Virus record (IMG/VR): IMGVR_UViG_2778261277_000016
Span: 1 to 25,499 of that record
Direction: 5' to 3' (one strand)
DNA: 25,499 nucleotides
DNA from: a virus
Taxonomy: Duplodnaviria > Heunggongvirae > Uroviricota > Caudoviricetes
Part shown: positions 1-16,608 of the stretch, in pieces
Position numbering within the stretch: position 1 is the first letter of the stretch
Layout: each line of letters opens with the position of its first letter
Notes under the pieces: generated by a model
What the model saw: the letters and a program-made list of their open reading frames with translations, nothing else
Told to the model about the DNA's origin: nothing
Database searches by the model: none
Made by a program: the position numbers and the translations under genes

Positions 1-141
1 TTACTGCTTACACTGTAAGAACGCCGCAAACTCCGCTCCCCAGAAGCTCATCCGTATTTCACACAGCGAACCGTGCAACATCCAGATGATGAGGATTGCC
101 GTCACGCAGAACGTGATGGCCGTAAGCGATTTTTGCGACAT
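1..141 (-). CDS. Hok/Gef-family type I toxin (small membrane peptide), 46 aa; below the length cutoff of the ORF track
   Basis: My translation of the reverse strand: MSQKSLTAITFCVTAILIIWMLHGSLCEIRMSFWGAEFAAFLQCKQ. Hydrophobic N-terminal helix followed by SLCEIR and EFAAF, which match the Hok-family signature (SLCEIR...EVAAF) as I remember it. AAGGAG lies about 8 nt upstream of the ATG. Stop codon is at positions 1-3. Confidence 0.55.
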   Translation of the reverse strand: MSQKSLTAITFCVTAILIIWMLHGSLCEIRMSFWGAEFAAFLQCKQ

Positions 142-271
142 AGCACTTGCTCCTTTTCCGGAGAGGCGCTAACCTTTCACTTGTCAAGGTAATGCGGTTA
201 GGGCCTCGGTTAAACAGAGATGTTTTCCGGGGCCTTTCCACATCTGGCCTTCGGGTATTCCCTCCGACCAT
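59..271 (-). CDS. mok-like overlapping reading frame (translational coupling frame for the hok-like toxin)
   Basis: 70-aa ORF in another frame that starts about 130 nt upstream of the hok-like ATG and overlaps most of it. This is the mok/hok architecture; plasmid R1 Mok is also about 70 aa from memory. No convincing SD before this ATG, so the true start is uncertain. Confidence 0.25.
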   Translation of the reverse strand: MVGGNTRRPDVERPRKTSLFNRGPNRITLTSERLAPLRKRSKCYVAKIAYGHHVLRDGNPHHLDVARFAV

Positions 272-331
272 CAGCCGAAAGGCACCCGCGCGTAATCTAT
301 CGCTTTTTTGTTACTCCGGCAATTCTGCCTG

Positions 332-592
332 TTAATTCTGAGGTAAAGGCAAGCTCATCTGATTGTTTCCCCTGTGTGAAGCTGGCAGCTCATGCCACGG
401 GATACCTTCTGAAGAGTGGATGCCGGAGGCGTGTTTCGATGTGAATTTATGGAAAGCTTCCAGTGTTGAGAAGCATACGCCGCATTCCAGGTTGTTACAC
501 TGGTAATACTTTTGCCGCACGGTGTTTGAATCATTTTCCGGACGACTGGTGCGGATACGGGCAGATGCGCCACAAAGCGGACAACGGAACAT
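332..592 (-). CDS. ogr: Ogr/Delta-family zinc-finger late transcription activator
   Basis: N-terminus MFRCPLCGASARIRTSR...YYQCNNLECGVCF has the C-x2-C...C-x4-C pattern and matches P2 Ogr (MFHCPLC...RTSR...YHQCQNVNC) from memory. Position after gene D fits P2 synteny. Confidence 0.8.
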   Translation of the reverse strand: MFRCPLCGASARIRTSRPENDSNTVRQKYYQCNNLECGVCFSTLEAFHKFTSKHASGIHSSEGIPWHELPASHRGNNQMSLPLPQN

Positions 593-741: not shown

Positions 742-1407
742 TCAATTTTTAAGAGCACTGATACAGAAAAATTGCATGACATTTTTCTTTATTGATTTAA
801 ATAAGCTAAACATTGTGACAGGTTCAAAGCTAGTTAACTCGATGAATTCCTCTCTCATTTGAGAAAGTAACAGCTGACGTACTGATTCAATTTCTGCTGT
901 TTGTTTTCTCAAATATCTTGAGAAAACAAGTAGTTCATCAGCTGTTTTGTTTTGGCCATTTATAAACGTAACAGGTTGCCCTGGCTTAGATATGAGAAAA
1001 AATTGGTTAATTTTATCAAGTAATGGTGGAATTATTTTTTTCCATTCAGCCCATTCTTTTTCACGATGAAACTCCAGACTGTGCTGACATGTTCTTAGTT
1101 GCTGTCTATCAATCGCCCAGACCTCACTCTCATCGAGGCAATCTTTCCATTTGCTAATTACATTAATGTCAAATTTTTTGTTCGGTAGATAATTATCTTT
1201 GGCGTGCGCTTCCAGTATAGAGGCAAGAGTACCTGTATATTGCATCAAATTGGTAGATGCTCGGTTTACTAGCTCTGATATTCGATCTAGTTGAGTTGTT
1301 CTAATCTCAAGTGCTTTCTTTTTACGTTCATTTCGTAAAGCAAAATATGCAGCAAGGCAGACTGCAGCAACTGTGGCTGCTGGTGCGATAAAAATTTGCA
1401 TATTCAT
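742..1407 (-). CDS. Hypothetical membrane-anchored protein (AT-rich cargo gene between D and ogr), about 221 aa
   Basis: Long ORF in a visibly AT-rich stretch flanked by GC-rich phage genes. N-terminal hydrophobic helix IFIAPAATVAAVCLAAYFAL followed by a basic patch RNERKKK. AAGGA lies 8 nt before the ATG at 1405-1407; the ORF could extend to 1431. No homolog recognised. Confidence 0.6.
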   Translation of the reverse strand: MNMQIFIAPAATVAAVCLAAYFALRNERKKKALEIRTTQLDRISELVNRASTNLMQYTGTLASILEAHAKDNYLPNKKFDINVISKWKDCLDESEVWAIDRQQLRTCQHSLEFHREKEWAEWKKIIPPLLDKINQFFLISKPGQPVTFINGQNKTADELLVFSRYLRKQTAEIESVRQLLLSQMREEFIELTSFEPVTMFSLFKSIKKNVMQFFCISALKN

Positions 1408-1601
1408 AACATGGATCCTTTGACATGGCATTTATGGGGGCTATTTCAGCAGTAATCATTTGTGTGTAAATTTGTTTGCTACAAATTAACATATTCTAAT
1501 GTAAGGCTCTTCTGATTTTGACACCGGGTAGGCTGTCAGATTGGTTATGATTCTTGCTGTAAGCGCGTTAGCAAATGTCAGGGCTAATGCATCTAAGTTG
1601 T

Positions 1602-8450: not shown

Positions 8451-8488
8451 AAAACCGCTAATGGTCAGATTAGCGGTTTTCATTTTCC
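8451..8488. terminator. Bidirectional hairpin terminator between U and the invertase fragment
   Basis: Perfect 12-bp inverted repeat AAAACCGCTAAT(8451-8462)/ATTAGCGGTTTT(8469-8480) with a 6-nt loop, followed by CATTTTCC on +. Sits between convergent genes. Confidence 0.5.
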
Positions 8489-8775
8489 TGAGTCTGCCTG
8501 GTTGTTTCTTCAGCCTGTATATCGCCTACAGGGTGATAACGATAAATCGTCGATATGCCGATGTCGTAAATGATCGCCAGTTGTTTCCTGTCATGACCGT
8601 TTTTAATCAGCCTCGCTATTTGTTCGTGTTGTTCTTTTGTCAACTTCGGGCGACGTCCGCCAATGCGTCCTTGTGCGCGTGCTGCTGCCAGCCCGGCCAG
8701 TGTACGCTCTACAATTAATTCATGTTCCATTTCGGCTAAAGCTCCCATGACGTGAAAAAAGAAACGCCCCATGGG
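8470..8775 (-). pseudogene. Truncated serine-invertase paralog (C-terminal half only)
   Basis: Translation PMGRFFFHVMGALAEMEHELIVERTLAGLAAARAQGRIGGRRPKLTKEQHEQIARLIKNGHDRKQLAIIYDIGISTIYRYHP matches the C-terminal half of the adjacent invertase with a handful of substitutions. DNA similarity stops near 8775; the catalytic N-terminus is absent and there is no convincing RBS. Confidence 0.6.
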
Positions 8776-8860
8776 TGTTGATTGATGCGCCGCGCGATAA
8801 ACGTACCTATTTCCGTGAGATAAATTACATCGCCGCGGCATTTCAATATCAGAAAAAGAA

Positions 8861-9433
8861 TTACAAATCAGCTTGAGTTTGAAGTTCCTCTACAGGGTGA
8901 TAACGATAAATCGTCGATATACCGATATCGTAAATAATTGCCAACTGTTTCCTGCTATAGCCATTTTTGATCAGCCTTGCTATTTGTTCATGTTGCTCTT
9001 TTGTCAGTTTCGGACGACGTCCACCAATACGCCCCTGTGCACGTGCTGCTTCAAGTCCGGCCAGTGTTCGTTCAACTATTAATTCACGCTCCATTTCCGC
9101 TAAAGCCCCCATGACGTGAAAAAAGAAACGTCCCATGGGTGTTGACGTATCAATGCTGTCTGTAAGACTACGGAAGTTAACCCCTTTTTCCCGCAGTTCC
9201 TCAATAAGAGTGATGAGGTGTTTCATGCTTCTGCCCAGCCTGTCCAGCTTCCAGACAACGAGCGTATCTCCTTCTGATAACGTTCTGAGCAGCTTTTTCA
9301 ATCCCGGTCGGGCTGACTTTGTTCCGCTGATTTTATCCTCAAAAATCAGTTCACATCCTGCGCAGTTCAGTGCGTTTCGTTGTAAATCTGTATTCTGGTC
9401 ATTTGTTGACACACGAATGTAGCCAATTTGCAT
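8861..9433 (-). CDS. Serine DNA invertase, Gin/Hin/Pin/Cin/Min family
   Basis: Starts MQIGYIRVSTNDQNTDLQRNAL, the canonical N-terminus of this family with the catalytic Ser in RVST. Also has TLVVWKLDRLGRS, SLTDSIDTS and a C-terminal HTH (GISTIYRYHP). AAAGAGGA RBS 8 nt before the ATG. The ORF track's upstream extension to 9628 is rejected. Confidence 0.9.
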   Translation of the reverse strand: MQIGYIRVSTNDQNTDLQRNALNCAGCELIFEDKISGTKSARPGLKKLLRTLSEGDTLVVWKLDRLGRSMKHLITLIEELREKGVNFRSLTDSIDTSTPMGRFFFHVMGALAEMERELIVERTLAGLEAARAQGRIGGRRPKLTKEQHEQIARLIKNGYSRKQLAIIYDIGISTIYRYHPVEELQTQADL

Positions 9434-9487
9434 GAAAAATATCCTCTTTGTTTTGTTAAAAATACATAGCTGGTATAGGTGGGAGTT

Positions 9488-9513
9488 AAGACGAAAACGT
9501 TGGTTTGGGGGAA
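9488..9513. repeat. Candidate 26-bp invertase crossover site (cassette 1)
   Basis: AAGACGAAAACG-TT-GGTTTGGGGGAA. Right half-site is identical in all five sites; overall shape resembles hixL TTCTTGAAAACC-AA-GGTTTTTGATAA from memory. Confidence 0.5.
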
Positions 9514-9936
9514 GGCTCAGCGCTGCCCGTTGGTGTGCCCGTTCCGTGGCCCTCAGCCACACCGCCAGCAGGGTGGCTGAAATGTAACGGCGCAGCATTT
9601 TCTTCTGAAATGTACCCCAATCTGGCAAAGGCTTATCCTACAAATAAATTACCGGATTTACGGGGTGAGTTTATTCGCGGCTGGGATGACGGGCGGGGAA
9701 TTGATTCAGGACGCACTCTACTTTCGTTACAGGGCGATATGTTTAAATCGCACAGTCATTACTTCCGTGAAATATGGGGTGCAAATGGACCAGATGGAAC
9801 TGGTGGACCGTACATTGTCGGGGCGGATACAAACGGTTCGAGAATAAATTTAGGCACTATAGAAACCAGTGCACCTGGTGGTTCAGAAACCCGTCCCCGT
9901 AACATTGCATTTAATTACATCGTAAGAGCGGCATAG
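9505..9936 (+). CDS. Silent tail-fibre C-terminal cassette 1 (tail-collar-like domain, HxH-containing); promoterless gene segment
   Basis: No ATG or RBS (the ORF track begins at TTG inside the crossover site). Conserved N-part GEGSALPVGVPVPWPSATPP.GWLKCNGAAFSSEMYP.LAKAYPTNKLPDLRGEFIRGWDDGRGID, variable middle, conserved end RPRNIAFNYIVRAA; the same ends occur in the expressed H gene. Confidence 0.75.
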   Translation: MGEGSALPVGVPVPWPSATPPAGWLKCNGAAFSSEMYPNLAKAYPTNKLPDLRGEFIRGWDDGRGIDSGRTLLSLQGDMFKSHSHYFREIWGANGPDGTGGPYIVGADTNGSRINLGTIETSAPGGSETRPRNIAFNYIVRAA

Positions 9937-9955
9937 AAACGTTGGTTTGGGGGAA
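9930..9955. repeat. Candidate crossover site (cassette 2)
   Basis: GGCATAGAAACG-TT-GGTTTGGGGGAA; the left half-site contains the stop codon of cassette 1. Confidence 0.5.
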
Positions 9956-10414
9956 GGCTCGGCGCTGCCCGTTGGTGTGCCTGTTCCGTGGCCCTCAGCC
10001 ACACCACCAACGGGCTGGCTGAAATGTAACGGTGCAGCATTTTCTTCTGAAATGTATCCCAAACTGGCAAAAGCTTACCCCACCAATAAATTACCGGATT
10101 TACGGGGTGAATTTATTCGTGGCTGGGATGATGGGCGGGGAATTGATAATAGACGCAACCTACTGTCTGCACAGTCTGACACTATTCAGAATATAGTTGG
10201 CACTTTTGGACGAACTCAGCTTTTTAAAGATGCTTTAAATTCAGGGCCATTTAGTCAAACTGACTCTATATTATCAGTAGGCTTGCAACCAACTGAGAAT
10301 ATTGAAGGATATGGCGCCTCTGTATGGACATTCGACGCCTCTCGCTCAGTTCGCACAGCATCTGAAACACGTCCTCGTAACATTGCGTTTAATTACATCG
10401 TAAGGGCGGCATAG
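9947..10414 (+). CDS. Silent tail-fibre C-terminal cassette 2 (no HxH, AT-rich variable core)
   Basis: Same conserved ends as cassette 1; variable core NRRNLLSAQSDTIQNIVGTF... is unrelated to cassettes 1 and 4; in a different reading frame from cassette 1. Confidence 0.75.
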   Translation: MGEGSALPVGVPVPWPSATPPTGWLKCNGAAFSSEMYPKLAKAYPTNKLPDLRGEFIRGWDDGRGIDNRRNLLSAQSDTIQNIVGTFGRTQLFKDALNSGPFSQTDSILSVGLQPTENIEGYGASVWTFDASRSVRTASETRPRNIAFNYIVRAA

Positions 10415-10433
10415 AAACGTTGGTTTGGGGGAA
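10408..10433. repeat. Candidate crossover site (cassette 3)
   Basis: GGCATAGAAACG-TT-GGTTTGGGGGAA, identical to the cassette 2 and 4 sites. Confidence 0.5.
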
Positions 10434-10886
10434 GGCTCTGCACTACCTGTTGGTGTGCCTGTTCCATGGCCGTCAGCCACACCGCCAACAGGGTGGCTGA
10501 AATGTAACGGTGCAGCATTTTCTTCTGAAATGTACCCCAATCTGGCAAAGGCTTACCCCACGAATAAATTACCGGATTTACGGGGCGAATTTATCCGTGG
10601 CTGGGATGACGGACGAGGTATTGATGCAGGACGAGAGATACTTTCATTTCAGGAAGGCACTATCGTCTCCGGTTTTGATGATAATGATACTGGGGATATC
10701 AGTTCACTTAGCTCAACACAATACGGATTTGGTGACACTCTAACCTCTAATCAATGGGGGGCCATAAATGGCAAAAAGTGGATATTTGATGCATCCAGTA
10801 AAGGTGCACAAAAATATGACTGGCGGGCTTATGTATCAGCTCGTCCGCGTAATATTGCATTTAATTACATCGTAAGAGCGGCATAG
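10425..10886 (+). CDS. Silent tail-fibre C-terminal cassette 3 (no HxH)
   Basis: Same conserved ends; unique variable core AGREILSFQEGTIVSGFDDNDTGD... Confidence 0.75.
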   Translation: MGEGSALPVGVPVPWPSATPPTGWLKCNGAAFSSEMYPNLAKAYPTNKLPDLRGEFIRGWDDGRGIDAGREILSFQEGTIVSGFDDNDTGDISSLSSTQYGFGDTLTSNQWGAINGKKWIFDASSKGAQKYDWRAYVSARPRNIAFNYIVRAA

Positions 10887-10905
10887 AAACGTTGGTTTGG
10901 GGGAA
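10880..10905. repeat. Candidate crossover site (cassette 4)
   Basis: GGCATAGAAACG-TT-GGTTTGGGGGAA. Confidence 0.5.
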
Positions 10906-11400
10906 GGCTCTGCACTACCCGTTGGTGTGCCTGTTCCGTGGCCCTCAGCCACACCGCCAACAGGGTGGCTGAAATGTAACGGCGCAGCATTTTCTTCTGA
11001 AATGTACCCCAAACTGGCAAAGGCTTACCCCACCAATAAATTACCGGATTTACGGGGTGAGTTTATTCGTGGCTGGGATGATGGGCGGGGAATTGATTCA
11101 GGGCGTTCCTTGCTTAATGCACAATCACATTCGGTTATAGATCATATTCATTATATGGAGTTATGGACTGGTGAAGGGCTTGCCGCAAACAACACCCGTG
11201 CAGGAACAAACCCTGGTATACTGGCTACATACGGTGATGGCGGGATTGTTAAAACAGATGAGTCAGGTGTAAAAGTTCCATCTTCACTACGTGCTATTGG
11301 CACTCGTGGTGTTTATAGATTAGGTGCCAACGGAGGGAATACAGGAACGGAAAACCGCCCCCGTAATATTGCGTTTAACTATATTGTAAGGGCTACTTAA
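10897..11400 (+). CDS. Silent tail-fibre C-terminal cassette 4 (HxH-containing), coupled to the downstream tail-fibre assembly gene
   Basis: Same conserved ends; variable core contains HIHYMELW; its stop overlaps the next gene's start as TAATG (11398-11402). Confidence 0.75.
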   Translation: MGEGSALPVGVPVPWPSATPPTGWLKCNGAAFSSEMYPKLAKAYPTNKLPDLRGEFIRGWDDGRGIDSGRSLLNAQSHSVIDHIHYMELWTGEGLAANNTRAGTNPGILATYGDGGIVKTDESGVKVPSSLRAIGTRGVYRLGANGGNTGTENRPRNIAFNYIVRAT

Positions 11401-12017
11401 TGAATAATGCTGCTGCAGTACTTGATCAGAATGGTATCGCTATAACTGCAGGCGATATTACCGTTTATAACTACGATGCTGAAAACCGTGAATATCTCTC
11501 TGCCACTGTTGAGTATCTCGCTTATGGTGTTGGAATTCCGGCTCACTCATGCATTGACGCGCCACCAGAAAAACGCCCCGGCTTCGCTGTCTGTCGTGAT
11601 ACCGACCAGAACATCTGGAAATATGTTCCAGACCACAGAGGCGAAACGGTTTACAGCACAGAGAATGGTAACGCTGTGCAAATCACACAACCGGGAGATT
11701 ACCCTCCTGATACGACGGTGAAACAGCCAGCTACTATCTATGATGTCTGGGATGGTGAGATTTGGGTGACAGATACGAGACGACAGCACGCAGCAGAACT
11801 GGAAGCTGCCGGAGCGCATCGTCAGCAACTTGAGGAACAGGCAATGGCATCTGTTGAGCTTATTAATCTCAAACTACGAGCCGGACGCCGATTGACGCCC
11901 CAGGAGACGGAAAAACTAAACGCCGTGCTTGATTTCATAGATACGCTTAATGCGACTGACATCAGCACTGCACCGGATATCAACTGGCCGGAAATGCCTC
12001 TGGCAGCAGCCAGTTGA
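11400..12017 (+). CDS. Tail fibre assembly protein (Tfa family; P2 gpG / Mu U analogue)
   Basis: 205 aa; translationally coupled to cassette 4 with an AAGGG RBS; family assignment is from memory of Tfa-like proteins (short conserved N-terminus, Asp/Pro-rich regions, coiled-coil segment) and from its position beside the fibre cassettes. Confidence 0.75.
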   Translation: MNNAAAVLDQNGIAITAGDITVYNYDAENREYLSATVEYLAYGVGIPAHSCIDAPPEKRPGFAVCRDTDQNIWKYVPDHRGETVYSTENGNAVQITQPGDYPPDTTVKQPATIYDVWDGEIWVTDTRRQHAAELEAAGAHRQQLEEQAMASVELINLKLRAGRRLTPQETEKLNAVLDFIDTLNATDISTAPDINWPEMPLAAAS

Positions 12018-12023
12018 GTATAA

Positions 12024-13541
12024 TTAAGCCGCCCTCACGATATAGTTAAATGCGATATTGCGGGGGCGAGTTTCACTACCACCAGTGTTACCAATACTCC
12101 CTCGTGAATGAAGTGTCGGTGATGGGATCAGACTCCCGCCTGTACTTGTGGCATCAAGTCCCCGTCCTTGTGTATATGTTTTTTTGAAAATTGTGGCCAA
12201 CTCCCATTCATCCTTTGTGTCATACCCATCGTTAGCTACAACAATATGGCGGTGTTTTTCCAGCATCCCAGTTTGAAAGCTTAATAAAGCACGTCCTGCA
12301 TCAATCCCTCGCCCGTCATCCCAGCCACGAATAAACTCGCCCCGTAAATCCGGTAATTTATTGGTGGGGTAAGCCTTTGCCAGTTTGGGGTACATTTCAG
12401 AAGAAAATGCTGCACCGTTACATTTCAGCCACCCTGTTGGCGGTGTGGCTGAGGGCCACGGAACAGGCACACCAACGGGTAGTGCAGAGCCTTCCCCCAA
12501 ACCAAGGTATGCGAGAAGACCAGCTACATCCTTTCCACTCAAATTGGTAAGCGTATTGTCCAGCGGTTGTTTACCTGCCAGCGCACTAAGCATTGTCGTG
12601 GCAAAGTTCGGATCATTCCCCAGTGCCGCAGCCAGTTCGTTCAGCGTGTTCAGTGCATCAGGTGACGAATCTACAAGTGCGGCAATCGCGGCCATAACGA
12701 AAGCCGTGCTTGCGATCTGGGTACTATTAGTCCCCTGTGGCGCTGTTGGTGTTGTTGGCATTCCGGTCAGTGCCGGGCTGTTTAATGGTGCTTTCTTGCT
12801 CGTTTCATCCATTACCGCCTTAACAGCTTTTGGTGTCGCTGCCAGCGTTTCAGACGTGCTGTTCGTGGCGCTACTGAGCTGAACAATCCCTTTTTGTGTT
12901 GTGGTGGCGTTCTGGGCGGTATATTTCCCGTCAGCCAGGTCATATGCAGCCTTAACTGCTTTCGGTGTTGCGGCCAGTGTTTCTGATTCACTGTTAATTG
13001 CACTGCTTAACTGAGTAAAACCTTTTGCGGTCAGCGAGGCGTCCGGGTGACGTCGTGACTGTTCGTGCTCTGAGATTTTATCATCCACATATTTGCGGGT
13101 TGCCAGAACCACCGACGGGTCGATTTTCAGCGTGATGGCTTCGGTATTCGTGACAACCAGAATCATGCGGATAGTCTGGGTGCGTCCACTGCCTTCCTGC
13201 AACTGCGGTTTGTACGTTTCCGGGCAGTTTGCCACCGCAATGAGTACACCTTCATCATCATAAAGACCAATCTCACGGATCCAGAATCCTCCCTCGTTTT
13301 CAGGGATGATTTGCTCCGCAATAATCTGGCTCTGATTGTTAGGGTCAACACTCAGAAGATTCAGCGGTGCAATGCGTTTCTGGTTAATCAGTTTTGTTTG
13401 TGCAGGGTCTGGTGTTGGTAACACACCATTTGCATCACCAACGGCCATTTGCGTCAGATTCAGCTTACTGCCGAGCATCGTCGCGTTAGCCAGTCGTGCT
13501 GCGCCCTGATTAGTCAGAATGGCGTAGTATTTCACTGTCAT
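12024..13541 (-). CDS. H: Tail fibre protein H, currently expressed variant (P2 gpH-like N-terminus fused to a tail-collar-type C-terminal cassette)
   Basis: N-terminal portion through EHEQSRRHPDASLTAKGFTQLSSA...ETLAATPKAVKA matches P2 gpH from memory. The C-terminal 155 aa begin ...LGLGEGSALPVGVPVPWPSATPPTGWLKCNG and end RPRNIAFNYIVRAA, the same frame as the silent cassettes on the opposite strand. Confidence 0.9.
   Translation of the reverse strand: MTVKYYAILTNQGAARLANATMLGSKLNLTQMAVGDANGVLPTPDPAQTKLINQKRIAPLNLLSVDPNNQSQIIAEQIIPENEGGFWIREIGLYDDEGVLIAVANCPETYKPQLQEGSGRTQTIRMILVVTNTEAITLKIDPSVVLATRKYVDDKISEHEQSRRHPDASLTAKGFTQLSSAINSESETLAATPKAVKAAYDLADGKYTAQNATTTQKGIVQLSSATNSTSETLAATPKAVKAVMDETSKKAPLNSPALTGMPTTPTAPQGTNSTQIASTAFVMAAIAALVDSSPDALNTLNELAAALGNDPNFATTMLSALAGKQPLDNTLTNLSGKDVAGLLAYLGLGEGSALPVGVPVPWPSATPPTGWLKCNGAAFSSEMYPKLAKAYPTNKLPDLRGEFIRGWDDGRGIDAGRALLSFQTGMLEKHRHIVVANDGYDTKDEWELATIFKKTYTQGRGLDATSTGGSLIPSPTLHSRGSIGNTGGSETRPRNIAFNYIVRAA
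12492..12517. repeat. Candidate crossover site inside H (constant/variable junction), inverted relative to the cassette sites
   Basis: + strand reads TTCCCCCAAACC-AA-GGTATGCGAGAA, i.e. on the - strand TTCTCGCATACC-TT-GGTTTGGGGGAA. Homology with the cassettes begins exactly at the TT core, inside the CTT codon of ...AYLGLGEGS. Confidence 0.55.
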
Positions 13542-14146: not shown

Positions 14147-15035
14147 TACGCCCACCTTCGCTGATGGTGAATGACTCACAGCGCGCCGCCTGTATGTCAC
14201 TGATGGCCATATTCTGTGTGGGTTCGATTATCTCCACGCGTTGCACGCCGTGTACATGAAGTGCGGCAGCAATGGCGGACAACGCCACGTCCTGACCGAT
14301 AAGCCCCTGTTCAGCCAGCCACTTCCTGAATGACGATTCCGCCGCGGCCAGAATAGGTTCGGATTCCGGACCGGGGTAAAAGTACAGTTTTGCATTCAGC
14401 CGCCATGTCACGATGCTGGCGCTCTGTACGGTCAGGCGGTCGGCCACCGGGCGGGTATCCTCTGCATTCAGAACGGCGCGAACGGTATTAAGCAACGCCT
14501 CCGTTGCTGTGCCGTCGCCCTCAGTGGACAGTATGGAAACCGTCACGTTGGCCGGAGACGGGCTGATGGCTCGCGCGTCGCGTACCAGACCGCTGGCGCT
14601 GCGTGCAAAATACTCGTATGCGCCTGACGGGCCAGCAACACTCAGACCGTCATACGCCCGTTGCGCCCGCAGTCTCAGCGAGGTGTCGCTTTCCATCACC
14701 GCGTCGGTGGTATCCGTTGCCGGAGTGATAACCAGGCGCTTTGTGTTCATATTACCCGCGAGGTTGTCCAGGTCTGTCCCGGCGCTGTGGCTTAACATGC
14801 AGGCGCGTGCACCCTCATTGACCCGCTGGCGTAACAGCATTTCACGAAACGCTGTTGTCTGGGCGATAACGTTCAGAGGTTCCGATTCCAGCTCCAGCGC
14901 AGCGGAGACGGCTTCACGCTGTTCGGCGGGATAAGCCGCAATCATCATGGCCTTTGTGTCAGCCAGAATTGCCTCAAAGTCAGGCTCCGCGATGATGGCG
15001 GGTTCCGGTAACTGGGAAAGGTCAACGGCGGGCAT
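14139..15035 (-). CDS. J: Baseplate assembly protein J (P2 gpJ family)
   Basis: 298 aa; canonical W-J-I-H order. Confidence 0.85.
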   Translation of the reverse strand: MPAVDLSQLPEPAIIAEPDFEAILADTKAMMIAAYPAEQREAVSAALELESEPLNVIAQTTAFREMLLRQRVNEGARACMLSHSAGTDLDNLAGNMNTKRLVITPATDTTDAVMESDTSLRLRAQRAYDGLSVAGPSGAYEYFARSASGLVRDARAISPSPANVTVSILSTEGDGTATEALLNTVRAVLNAEDTRPVADRLTVQSASIVTWRLNAKLYFYPGPESEPILAAAESSFRKWLAEQGLIGQDVALSAIAAALHVHGVQRVEIIEPTQNMAISDIQAARCESFTISEGGRNE

Positions 15036-15038
15036 GAT

Positions 15039-15389
15039 TTACTCCCTCAGCGTGATGGTTAATTCAACATTCTGCATGGTCTGCATGACAGTGCCCGACA
15101 GCGTCACCCCGGCGCGGCCTCCCGCTTTCCAGACAACATCGATGGCGTCCAGGGCAATGCGGGGTTCCCATCGTGTCAGCGCAATCACGGCAGCACTCAT
15201 GCATTGCAGACGCGTGGTGTTATTCATGGGTTCGTCAATCAAATCAGGCACAAGGCTGCCATATTCCCGTCGCATAACCCGGCTTGCCAGCGGGGTGGTC
15301 AGGATGTCCCTGACTGACTGTTTCAGGTGCTCCATATCGTTCAGGTTTCCCGTCCCGTCCGGGTTCATTCCTGTGTAGCGGGTTGTCAC
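15039..15389 (-). CDS. W: Baseplate wedge protein W (P2 gpW, T4 gp25-like)
   Basis: 116 aa; position and size fit. Confidence 0.85.
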   Translation of the reverse strand: MTTRYTGMNPDGTGNLNDMEHLKQSVRDILTTPLASRVMRREYGSLVPDLIDEPMNNTTRLQCMSAAVIALTRWEPRIALDAIDVVWKAGGRAGVTLSGTVMQTMQNVELTITLRE

Positions 15390-15967
15390 TGCGGGCCTCC
15401 TGTCGAATCGCTGCCACCTTTAACGCCACCGTGCTTATGCGTATGCACTGTGATGCCGTTTGAGGTGAAGTCGCCGCCGCTGTGCGTGATATTGCCGCTC
15501 ATCTTTCCCCCTTTTGTGACGTCAAGCGTCGCCGTTCTCAGAAGGTTTGTGCATTCCACGACAGGCGTGTCCAGTTTCACGCTGACGGATGCCTGTAAAG
15601 TGGCCGTTTTCATGCCGCTGGCGCTCAGTGCGCCTGCGTCCGCGTCGTAGCGGAACACCGCGCCGTCCGGCGCGCTGATCACGATTTCTTTCAGGCTTTT
15701 GCCGGGGGCCGGACTGGCATCACTCCACAGGCTGCCAATTATCATGGCGGTTTCCGGGTTGCCGCCAATGCAGGCAATTACCACCTGTTCGCCTGGTGAT
15801 GGCGGCAGCCACACATTGAAGGCTCCCGCGCGCGTGGTGTTCCAGCGCAGCCAGCCTGTTTCCAGTTCGCCGCTGCGAACGCGCACGCGCCAGGACTTCT
15901 CATCAACTTCAGAGATGATCCCGGTGCGGATGATATTGCTCAGCAGTCGCATGAGTTCTGCGCTCAC
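15386..15967 (-). CDS. V: Baseplate spike/assembly protein V (P2 gpV family)
   Basis: 193 aa with a Gly-rich C-terminus; ATGA-type overlaps with both neighbours. Confidence 0.85.
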   Translation of the reverse strand: MSAELMRLLSNIIRTGIISEVDEKSWRVRVRSGELETGWLRWNTTRAGAFNVWLPPSPGEQVVIACIGGNPETAMIIGSLWSDASPAPGKSLKEIVISAPDGAVFRYDADAGALSASGMKTATLQASVSVKLDTPVVECTNLLRTATLDVTKGGKMSGNITHSGGDFTSNGITVHTHKHGGVKGGSDSTGGPQ

Positions 15968-16608
15968 CGTACAGCCTCCGCAATCCGGCCCAGCACCGTG
16001 TTATAAATCAGGCGCTCATCTGCCTGGCTGATACCCAGCAGCTCACGTACCGGGTAATCGGTGAAAATGCCCGGCGCAACCTGATCGCGCTCACCGAACT
16101 GATGAACGCGGGCAATACGTGCGGCCACGCCGCTGTAACCCACCGTCACACCGGAAGCATCTGCACGGGCTTTCAGGTAGCGGGCGGTGCGCAGTTTTAC
16201 GAACATGGGGACGCGCTTTGTGCTGTCCTGGTTGATGCGCCGGGTGCGTATTTCCAGAAAACGGTCGATGTCATCCCGGTAAAACGTGCGGATATTGTTT
16301 TTATCCTCATCCCACCCGGTAATGGTTCGCCCGTATTTCCCCGTGTCGTGACGCCAGTTTTTCAGCGTGCGTGCTTCGTTATTCCAGATAAAGCGAATGC
16401 GTTCCTGTATCCGGGTTACGCGGCGTCTGCGTGGTGTCCACGCGGTCCCGTCCGGCGCTTTCTGTGACCGGATACGCGCCTGCTGGGCGCGGCGTAAATC
16501 CTGTGCCAGCTTTCTGGCGATGTTATTGATGGCCTGCTGATTCAGGCTGTCGCGGATGGCCTCAAAGGTTTCATCCACGCGGGTGAATGCCTTATCCATC
16601 GCTTTCAC
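15964..16608 (-). CDS. S: Tail completion / virion morphogenesis protein S (P2 gpS family)
   Basis: Position between R and V. The ORF is longer than P2 gpS as I remember it, so the start is uncertain. Confidence 0.7.
   Translation of the reverse strand: MKAMDKAFTRVDETFEAIRDSLNQQAINNIARKLAQDLRRAQQARIRSQKAPDGTAWTPRRRRVTRIQERIRFIWNNEARTLKNWRHDTGKYGRTITGWDEDKNNIRTFYRDDIDRFLEIRTRRINQDSTKRVPMFVKLRTARYLKARADASGVTVGYSGVAARIARVHQFGERDQVAPGIFTDYPVRELLGISQADERLIYNTVLGRIAEAVR

Follow-up and report, generated by a model that had tools for sequence, protein, structure and literature searches.

A likely hok/sok toxin-antitoxin module in P2-like prophages, with a covarying RNA switch and apparently no conserved mok frame

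At the left edge of a 25,499-nucleotide (nt) stretch of tailed-phage DNA (Caudoviricetes; IMG/VR record IMGVR_UViG_2778261277_000016, positions 1 to 25,499), a 46-codon open reading frame (ORF) for a predicted Hok/Gef-family membrane toxin lies next to the late-gene activator gene ogr. The whole stretch is referred to here as the window. Together with approximately 120 nt beyond the window edge, positions 1-331 most likely form a complete type I toxin-antitoxin module of the hok/sok kind, carried as cargo between ogr and the attachment (att) site of a P2-like (Peduoviridae) prophage, and we assign this reading a probability of about 0.82. An earlier note on this DNA had described the same 331 positions as a hok/mok-like locus; that span covers the promoter, leader, Sok gene, and hok coding sequence, and misses the 3′ untranslated region (UTR). 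Positions 1-700 are 100% identical to many Escherichia coli chromosomes, where the ORF is annotated as WP_000078916.1, "Hok/Gef family protein". The toxin gene is of a known kind and has already been annotated, as Hok/Gef at NCBI and as a family of its own in PHROGs. The window starts at the hok stop codon because prophage contigs are trimmed at gene ends, and the hok 3′ UTR is therefore not in it; the protective hairpin, fbi box, and terminator of this UTR were read from the 100%-identical chromosomes. Features of the locus are collected in Table 1.

Table 1. Features of the candidate hok/sok module and its surroundings (window coordinates unless another record is named)
Feature	Position	Strand	Remarks
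hok coding sequence	1..141	-	ATG at 141-139, TAA stop at 3-1; predicted 46-amino-acid Hok/Gef-family membrane toxin
hok Shine-Dalgarno (SD) sequence GGAG	150..153	-	8 nt upstream of the hok ATG; read from the sequence
GCGCCUCUCC box	160..169	-	predicted hok anti-SD in closed mRNA; dcb-like partner of GAGGC in truncated mRNA
GAGGC box	203..207	-	homologous by alignment to the mok SD of R1, hokB, and hokC; no start codon follows
ucb-like box GGAAAGGCCCC	229..239	-	mRNA nt 49-59; predicted to pair with the GAGGCC box (closed) or with tac (truncated or nascent)
hok mRNA 5′ end and tac GGGUGCCUUUCGGCU	273..287	-	putative +1 at ~287, 7 nt past the -10; Rfam RF01794 match starts at 287
hok promoter (putative)	294..322	-	-35 TTGCCG at 322-317, 17-nt spacer, -10 TAGATT at 299-294; the -35 is 10 nt past the ogr stop
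fbi box GGCACCC	~60 nt beyond the window edge, past the hok stop	-	predicted to pair with the 5′ tac
Sok-like promoter (putative)	147..175	+	-35 TTGCTC at 147-152, 17-nt spacer, -10 TAACCT at 170-175
Sok-like antisense RNA (putative)	183..238	+	~56-58 nt; free variable 5′ tail 183-199, hairpin 200-236, UUU tail
70-codon ORF	59..271	-	overlaps hok in another frame; earlier taken as mok-like, judged fortuitous
Short upstream ORF	184..243	-	ATG at mRNA nt 45; 19 codons, MWKGPGKHLCLTEALTALP; GAAGG SD-like motif
ogr	332..592	-	late-gene activator zinc finger (Pfam Ogr_Delta, 52.4 bits, and RefSeq annotation); marks the P2-like right end
Second hok of 933W	AF125520, ~45660-45800 (extracted locus 1500-1640)	-	46 amino acids, beside lom; also in other Stx phages

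The 46-codon ORF translates as MSQKSLTAITFCVTAILIIWMLHGSLCEIRMSFWGAEFAAFLQCKQ, in which an N-terminal hydrophobic stretch, LTAITFCVTAILIIWML, can be read. The Hok signature that the earlier note saw in this peptide is borne out by profile searches. Pfam PF01848 (HOK_GEF) scores 29.9 bits against a gathering cutoff of 22 (E 4.1e-7), aligning residues 7-44 with positions 5-42 of the 42-position profile, and PHROG 251 ("MokW-like host killing") matches with E 1e-22. Because the peptide lies above the Pfam cutoff and matches PHROG 251, it is far beyond a chance ORF. The best NCBIfam match, the HokA equivalog NF007290, gives 34.0 bits against a cutoff of 89, and the Hok family subfamily model NF007279 gives 21.6 against 73, both short of threshold; the peptide appears related to these models yet falls outside the characterized subfamilies. 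No PADLOC model matches it.

When aligned with HokB, HokC, and R1 Hok, the peptide is 22-30% identical and keeps an L-C-E core and an E.A.F C-terminal tail. M1, L26, E28, E37, and A39 are invariant, and C27 is common to HokC and R1 Hok. The L-C-E/E.A.F motif agrees with a logo built from 1264 peptides (bioRxiv 10.1101/2025.08.07.668861). The ratio of nonsynonymous to synonymous substitution rates (dN/dS) is 0.14-0.44 against the Salmonella, Klebsiella, and 933W copies, and 0.13-0.44 against copies that have no overlapping ORF, which indicates that the Hok peptide of this 46-amino-acid subfamily is under purifying selection.

Upstream of the ORF, the sequence resembles the leader of a hok mRNA. 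The boxes of the putative hok promoter match 8 of 12 consensus positions, and their geometry is kept in unrelated contexts, as TTGCCC-17-TAAATT in 933W, as TTGAAA with TAGAAT in E. albertii, and likewise in Citrobacter. A covariance-model scan with Rfam RF01794 ("sok") matches window positions 287..128 on the minus strand over all 157 model positions (48.4 bits, E 4.3e-9; gathering score 59). With the same model, canonical loci score 87-118 bits (110-118 for the K-12 loci) and other members of the 46-amino-acid subfamily 36-52. On K-12, the RF01794 match lies on the hok-sense strand and spans the mRNA from its 5′ end to the hok ATG, and because annotated sokC and sokB lie on the opposite strand, the model describes the hok leader. 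Thus, the strand of an RF01794 match must not be taken as the strand of the antitoxin. Alignment with the hokB, hokC, and R1-type loci reveals a shared order of elements: a tac of the form GGGUGCC, a ucb-like box, GAGGC, the complement of the Sok -10, the hok SD, the hok ORF, a 3′ hairpin, and fbi.

The fold-back elements expected of a hok mRNA are present as well. An RNA of 356 nt, running from the putative +1 through fbi, has a predicted minimum free energy (MFE) of -157.6 kcal/mol (z-score -6.7), and a 15-base-pair (bp) helix closes its 5′ to its 3′ end. In this full-length fold, the hok SD is paired with the CUCC of the anti-SD box. Covariation was assessed with RNAalifold on 24 homologues from E. 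coli, 933W, E. albertii, Citrobacter, Klebsiella, and the tandem copies of Salmonella. Of the 7 pairs in the consensus closing helix, six are invariant and one shows a lone G-U variant; a further 4 extension pairs all show two-sided compensatory change. Across the overall consensus fold, 97.8% of cells are paired and 20 pairs have two-sided changes, compared with 36-44% and 1-5 pairs, respectively, in controls with slid partners.

A second fold is predicted for 3′-truncated or nascent RNAs of 60, 150, and 320 nt. In these, tac pairs with GGAAAGGCCCC (nt 49-59), the GAGGC box pairs with the GCGCCUC of the hok anti-SD, the hok SD is largely unpaired, and a loop presents the sequence complementary to the Sok 5′ tail. 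Among the 24 homologues, 94% of the cells of the tac/ucb helix are paired; 4 of its pairs are compensatory, and the tac columns in three of these covary with fbi as well. For the GAGGC/GCCUC helix, pairing reaches 96%, with one compensatory GC-to-AU change. Both of these predicted, alternative foldings are conserved and covary in the alignment, and their logic matches the mechanism described for R1 (PMC9841398).

A short antisense RNA gene likely lies on the plus strand, where the earlier note had expected any Sok-type RNA to be encoded; its placement at roughly 240-330 was wrong. That stretch holds both boxes of the hok promoter and the 5′ tac stem, and the Sok-like gene sits some 60-150 bases away. 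Its putative promoter aligns with the transcription site of annotated K-12 sokB and sokC and with TTGCGC-17-TATCCT read in an R1-type locus, and its -10 is invariant in 23 of the 24 homologues (the 24th, a Salmonella copy, has TATCCT). The Sok-like strand folds more stably than the opposite, sense strand (MFE -24.1 kcal/mol, z-score -3.9, versus -15.3, z-score -1.9), and the RNA, whose ends we place from sequence, matches annotated SokB and SokC of K-12 in shape and placement. When SokB and SokC are included in the alignment, 6 pairs show compensatory change, compensatory changes occur in the upper stem, and the 5′ tail is highly variable. The hairpin also carries an invariant U.G pair, which corresponds to a C.A mismatch on the hok strand.

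The 70-codon frame that had been given a mok-like role does exist, overlapping hok as described; its mok-like status does not survive comparison. Its ATG, which starts at mRNA nt 17, falls within the tac stem, has no SD, and lies 130 nt upstream of the hok ATG, compared with 57-58 nt for the mok ATG of hokB, hokC, and the R1-type plasmid locus. The 70-residue product matches nothing in Pfam, NCBIfam, or PHROGs and is not similar to MokB, and no start codon follows the GAGGC box, where canonical mok begins. Among 46 distinct leaders encoding an identical Hok, the frame from the ATG at +16 runs for 6, 20, 24, 26, 28, 31, 37, 70, or 87 codons. An ATG-initiated ORF extends to the hok SD in 23 of 51 distinct leader variants of the subfamily, and an ORF starting with ATG, GTG, or TTG does so in 31; the 20 with none include P88, in which a 1-nt indel and a TAA destroy the frame, the 933W copy, and five distinct Salmonella copies. 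By the same measure, every control (hokB, hokC, and the R1-type locus) has its ATG at -57 or -58. Because it is in the wrong position, lacks an SD, and is not conserved, the 70-codon frame is not a credible mok, and it is probably open by chance or descent in this lineage.

Other possible upstream starts were considered. The in-frame GTG241, ATT193, and TTG187 were rejected as alternative mok starts, as none is conserved and only GTG241 has an SD-like motif nearby. Variants from E. coli, 933W, and E. albertii have the ATG of the short upstream ORF; copies from Salmonella, Klebsiella, and Citrobacter lack it. This ORF ranges from 10 to 78 codons in variable frame, and a 1-nt insertion in some leaders joins it to the hok-overlapping frame.

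The earlier note had allowed for two origins, host DNA beyond attR or a module carried by the prophage, and comparison with an uninfected strain settles the matter in favor of the latter. In strain 165 and in O55:H7 CB9615 the prophage lies between btuC and ihfA. The corresponding K-12 site is empty and has no hok locus, with homology to K-12 resuming only at the ihfA terminator. A 25-bp att core, AAAGAAAAAAGGCCGCAGAGCGGCC, which is the ihfA terminator itself, is duplicated at both prophage ends, with the integrase at the far end; the second copy was located in O55:H7 CB9615. As the core lies 262 bp beyond the hok stop, hok is inside the prophage. The K-12 sequence flanking the empty site was also searched for in the window, from which it is absent because the window ends at the portal gene. 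Furthermore, virion genomes (P88, 500465-2, P884B11, and others) carry the hok locus, and ogr is directly upstream of hok in 71 of 80 IMG/VR loci. Homology with P88 stops just past the hok terminator, and the att/int module of P88 is different. The hok locus is phage cargo.

The position of hok at the end of the contig reflects how such contigs are made. As in the window, the sequence ends precisely with the hok stop codon in 46 of the 80 hok-carrying IMG/VR contigs. When prophage boundaries are trimmed to gene ends, approximately 260 bp of genuine phage DNA are lost, among them the hok 3′ UTR and the att site. RNA-level analysis of contigs trimmed in this manner is therefore incomplete.

The module is common. 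Of 5426 complete E. coli genomes, 1549 (28.5%) contain the 446-nt locus, at 2000 places and in up to 7 copies per genome, and every full-length copy among the matches listed for these genomes carries a Hok/Gef annotation. The P2-like phages P88, 500465-2, 520873, Chuche, PhiR44_2, and Xuanwuvirus P884B11 have the locus at 94%-98% nucleotide identity, and phages encoding Shiga toxin (Stx) have a homologue at 83%. A protein search places the distinct 46-residue subfamily in Escherichia, Shigella, Salmonella, and Klebsiella, and a scan of genome contigs adds a Citrobacter copy. The viral-contig scan (IMG/VR, 80 loci) yielded only copies with a 100% identical Hok, which are informative regarding leader variation and biased for dN/dS. 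A literature search on hok in P2-like phages found nothing specific. A 2026 survey cataloged 32,532 hok loci, noted their enrichment in prophages, and explicitly left Mok and Sok unanalyzed; representative novel Hok homologues assayed in that work were toxic (bioRxiv 10.1101/2025.08.07.668861).

Two further observations concern the distribution of the subfamily. The profile scan of genome contigs, made from the peptide alignment, found 7 loci only, three of them in assemblies labeled Planococcaceae bacterium UBA3378, Vagococcus sp. WN89Y, and Xanthomonas pisi DSM 18956. These three copies are near-identical to the E. coli phage locus (72%-98% at the amino acid level) and probably represent contaminating enterobacterial contigs. 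Some Salmonella P2-like prophages carry gpD, ogr, and then three head-to-tail hok/sok units with a 498-nt period (loci L097 and L098; 1358-2711), and a two-unit tandem is found elsewhere (loci L099 and L100; 2354-3201). A separate tac, fbi, and terminator belong to every tandem unit, and the Sok 5′ tail differs from unit to unit, also among the three tandem copies. Hok "islets" have been reported previously (bioRxiv 10.1101/2025.08.07.668861).

The closest parallels are found among well-studied hok/sok systems. The paradigm type I system hok/mok/sok (parB) of plasmid R1 has the same cis order of promoter, tac, ucb, GAGGC, Sok -10/-35, hok SD, hok, 3′ protective hairpin, and fbi, the same closed (tac-fbi) and open (tac-ucb) foldings, and an antisense RNA of approximately 60 nt with a single-stranded 5′ tail and a U.G-containing hairpin (PMC9841398). 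The locus described here differs in being on a phage rather than a plasmid, in its Hok of 46 rather than 52 amino acids (~30% identical), in a leader ~27 nt shorter (hok ATG at nt 147 versus 174), in having no mok start after GAGGC and no conserved overlapping frame, and in a Sok -35 that overlaps the hok SD. The hokB/mokB/sokB and hokC/mokC/sokC loci of K-12 share a Sok 5′ end 42-49 nt upstream of the hok ATG and the same hairpin shape. The fbi box of hokB, GGCACCC, is identical to that of the prophage locus, and HokB and the 46-residue peptide both have a near-terminal Cys. However, peptide identity to HokB and HokC is only 22%-26%, and the mokB and mokC starts at -58 and -57 have no counterpart here.

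Similarly, the hokW-sokW locus of the Stx2 prophage Sp5/933W is a working prophage hok/sok system, in which loss of Sok at induction frees Hok and aids lysis (PMC8621323). Phage annotations of the 46-residue gene borrow its name, as in the label of PHROG 251. HokW itself has 51 amino acids and starts MKQQKAM, and its mRNA starts GGGTGCTTGAGGCTATC (PMC8621323). The possibility that the Stx-phage matches are hokW was rejected, as the 933W homologue is a separate 46-residue ORF beside lom (74% amino acid and 83% nucleotide identity to the prophage locus) and constitutes a second hok, unannotated in AF125520. By contrast, gp52 of P88 and its equivalents in 500465-2, 520873, Chuche, PhiR44_2, and P884B11 are the same gene in the same place, after ogr or tail gene D, and are annotated as hok/gef.

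Several results weigh against the interpretation of this locus as a complete module. A simple consensus scan found no sigma-70-like promoter in the region, the two proposed promoters agree with the consensus at only 7-8 of 12 positions, and the promoters are therefore assigned by homology and conservation only. Both NCBIfam Hok models score the peptide under their curated cutoffs, and the RF01794 score of the leader is below the gathering score. The fbi box and terminator come from identical genomes and not from the window. Also, many of the compensatory changes split only two clades, and because they mostly separate the E. coli type from the Salmonella type, independent compensatory events may be few. 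Finally, transcript ends, promoter activity, processing, and toxicity are properties that we infer from sequence.

Some of these same points could favor a silent relic, that is, a decaying or permanently repressed passenger that has lost mok coupling and makes no toxin, much like several K-12 hok loci. The missing conserved mok, the weak promoter matches, and the subthreshold scores against Rfam and NCBIfam models built on characterized loci would all fit such a history, and hokA, hokC, and hokE of K-12 are known as inactivated loci. Nevertheless, a relic seems very unlikely when dN/dS is well under 1, also in comparisons with copies that lack any overlapping ORF, when two mutually exclusive foldings are kept by compensatory changes, and when the Sok hairpin and its -10 are conserved. 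Its presence in 28.5% of complete E. coli genomes at up to 7 copies, the Salmonella tandem arrays, and the toxicity of representative novel Hok homologues (bioRxiv 10.1101/2025.08.07.668861) also speak against decay. The notion that hok belongs to the host chromosome beyond the prophage att site draws on its place at the extreme window edge, outside ogr, the last recognizable phage gene. Practically no chance is left for it, as it is already refuted by the empty-site comparison and the att core positions: K-12 has no hok there, homology returns only ~260 bp past the hok stop at the ihfA terminator, the core is repeated at the integrase end, and sequenced virion genomes such as P88 contain the locus.

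A canonical hok/mok/sok system is another alternative, in which the 70-codon frame would be a functional Mok whose translation opens the hok ribosome-binding site and Sok would act on the mok start. The frame is open through the hok SD here and in many E. coli variants, 23 of the 51 leaders have an ATG-initiated ORF that reaches this site, 70 codons is the length of R1 mok, and R1 needs mok translation up to the hok SD (PMC9841398). We consider this arrangement unlikely, as the start codon is buried in the tac stem with no SD, at -130 rather than -57 or -58, and the Sok-like RNA (mRNA nt ~50-105) does not reach it. Moreover, the GAGGC box has no start codon after it, the product does not resemble MokB, and stops or indels interrupt the frame in P88 (96% identical), 933W, Salmonella s1, and most Salmonella copies, where Hok is still under purifying selection; 20 of the 51 variants have no ATG, GTG, or TTG ORF to the hok SD at all.

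The preferred reading, a complete hok/sok module carried by the prophage, suggests the following course of events. A weak constitutive promoter would produce a hok mRNA of approximately 400 nt. In the full-length RNA, tac (GGGUGCC...) would pair with fbi (...GGCACCC) and the ucb-like box with GAGGC, and the CCUCUCC anti-SD would hold the hok SD, leaving the message stable and silent. Slow 3′ trimming to the covarying protective hairpin would strip fbi, whereupon tac could pair with the ucb-like box and GAGGC with the anti-SD, exposing the hok SD and presenting the complement of the Sok tail in a loop. The short, unstable antisense RNA (~57 nt) would bind this loop and lead to cleavage of the duplex or to re-closure. 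As long as phage DNA persists and is transcribed, no toxin would be made; once Sok is no longer synthesized, the 46-residue Hok would be produced and would insert in the inner membrane.

Translation of hok in this system might not need the mok frame. As a tentative proposal, somewhat short of even odds, the 46-residue subfamily of P2-like and Stx prophages in Escherichia, Salmonella, Klebsiella, and Citrobacter may be a naturally mok-independent form of hok/sok. The GAGGC box with no start codon would then be a pure RNA switch element, held by ucb in the closed form and paired with the hok anti-SD in the open form, and refolding would directly expose the hok ribosome-binding site. Sok would block refolding and recruit RNase III, and the fast-evolving tails would insulate co-resident or tandem copies from one another.

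With regard to biological role, prophage addiction or stabilization is the function that we would favor, followed by help with lysis timing at induction, by analogy with hokW-sokW of Sp5 (PMC8621323). Abortive-infection defense would be the third choice. The hok/sok system of R1 has reportedly been found to exclude T4.

Other parts of the prophage carry features of separate interest. Between ogr and the baseplate hub gene D, a 229-residue ORF (window 742-1431, minus strand) with a hydrophobic N terminus lies in a low-GC island (32%-39% versus 51%-57% in the flanks). With no match in Pfam, NCBIfam, PHROGs, or PADLOC, it is an orphan moron sharing the cargo site of hok; an IS3 element interrupts it in strain 165. 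Farther along, window 8470-13541 holds a serine invertase gene (8861-9628, minus strand) and a truncated second copy (8470-8841, minus strand), together with four tandem ORFs of 143-167 amino acids (9505-11400, plus strand), each opening with a phage tail Collar domain. These Collar ORFs and a tail-fiber assembly gene (11400-12017, plus strand) face a tail-fiber gene (12024-13541, minus strand). Judged from its genes only, this region looks like a multi-cassette tail-fiber switch of the Cin/Gin/Min type, in which host range is changed by inversion between alternative C termini. Outside the window, the O55:H7 CB9615 copy of the prophage has genes for ParM and a plasmid partitioning/stability protein by the replication endonuclease (extracted locus 14701-15976), which are unusual in an integrated P2-like phage.

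The toxin gene itself adds little, given that an NCBI name, a PHROGs family, and the 2026 survey of prophage hok genes already exist. Of wider practical consequence, boundary callers that cut at gene ends strip the 3′ fold-back element from hok/sok modules. The one unusual point is the apparent lack of a conserved mok beside an otherwise complete, covarying hok RNA switch. If this is confirmed experimentally, then translational coupling through mok would not be universal in hok/sok regulation.

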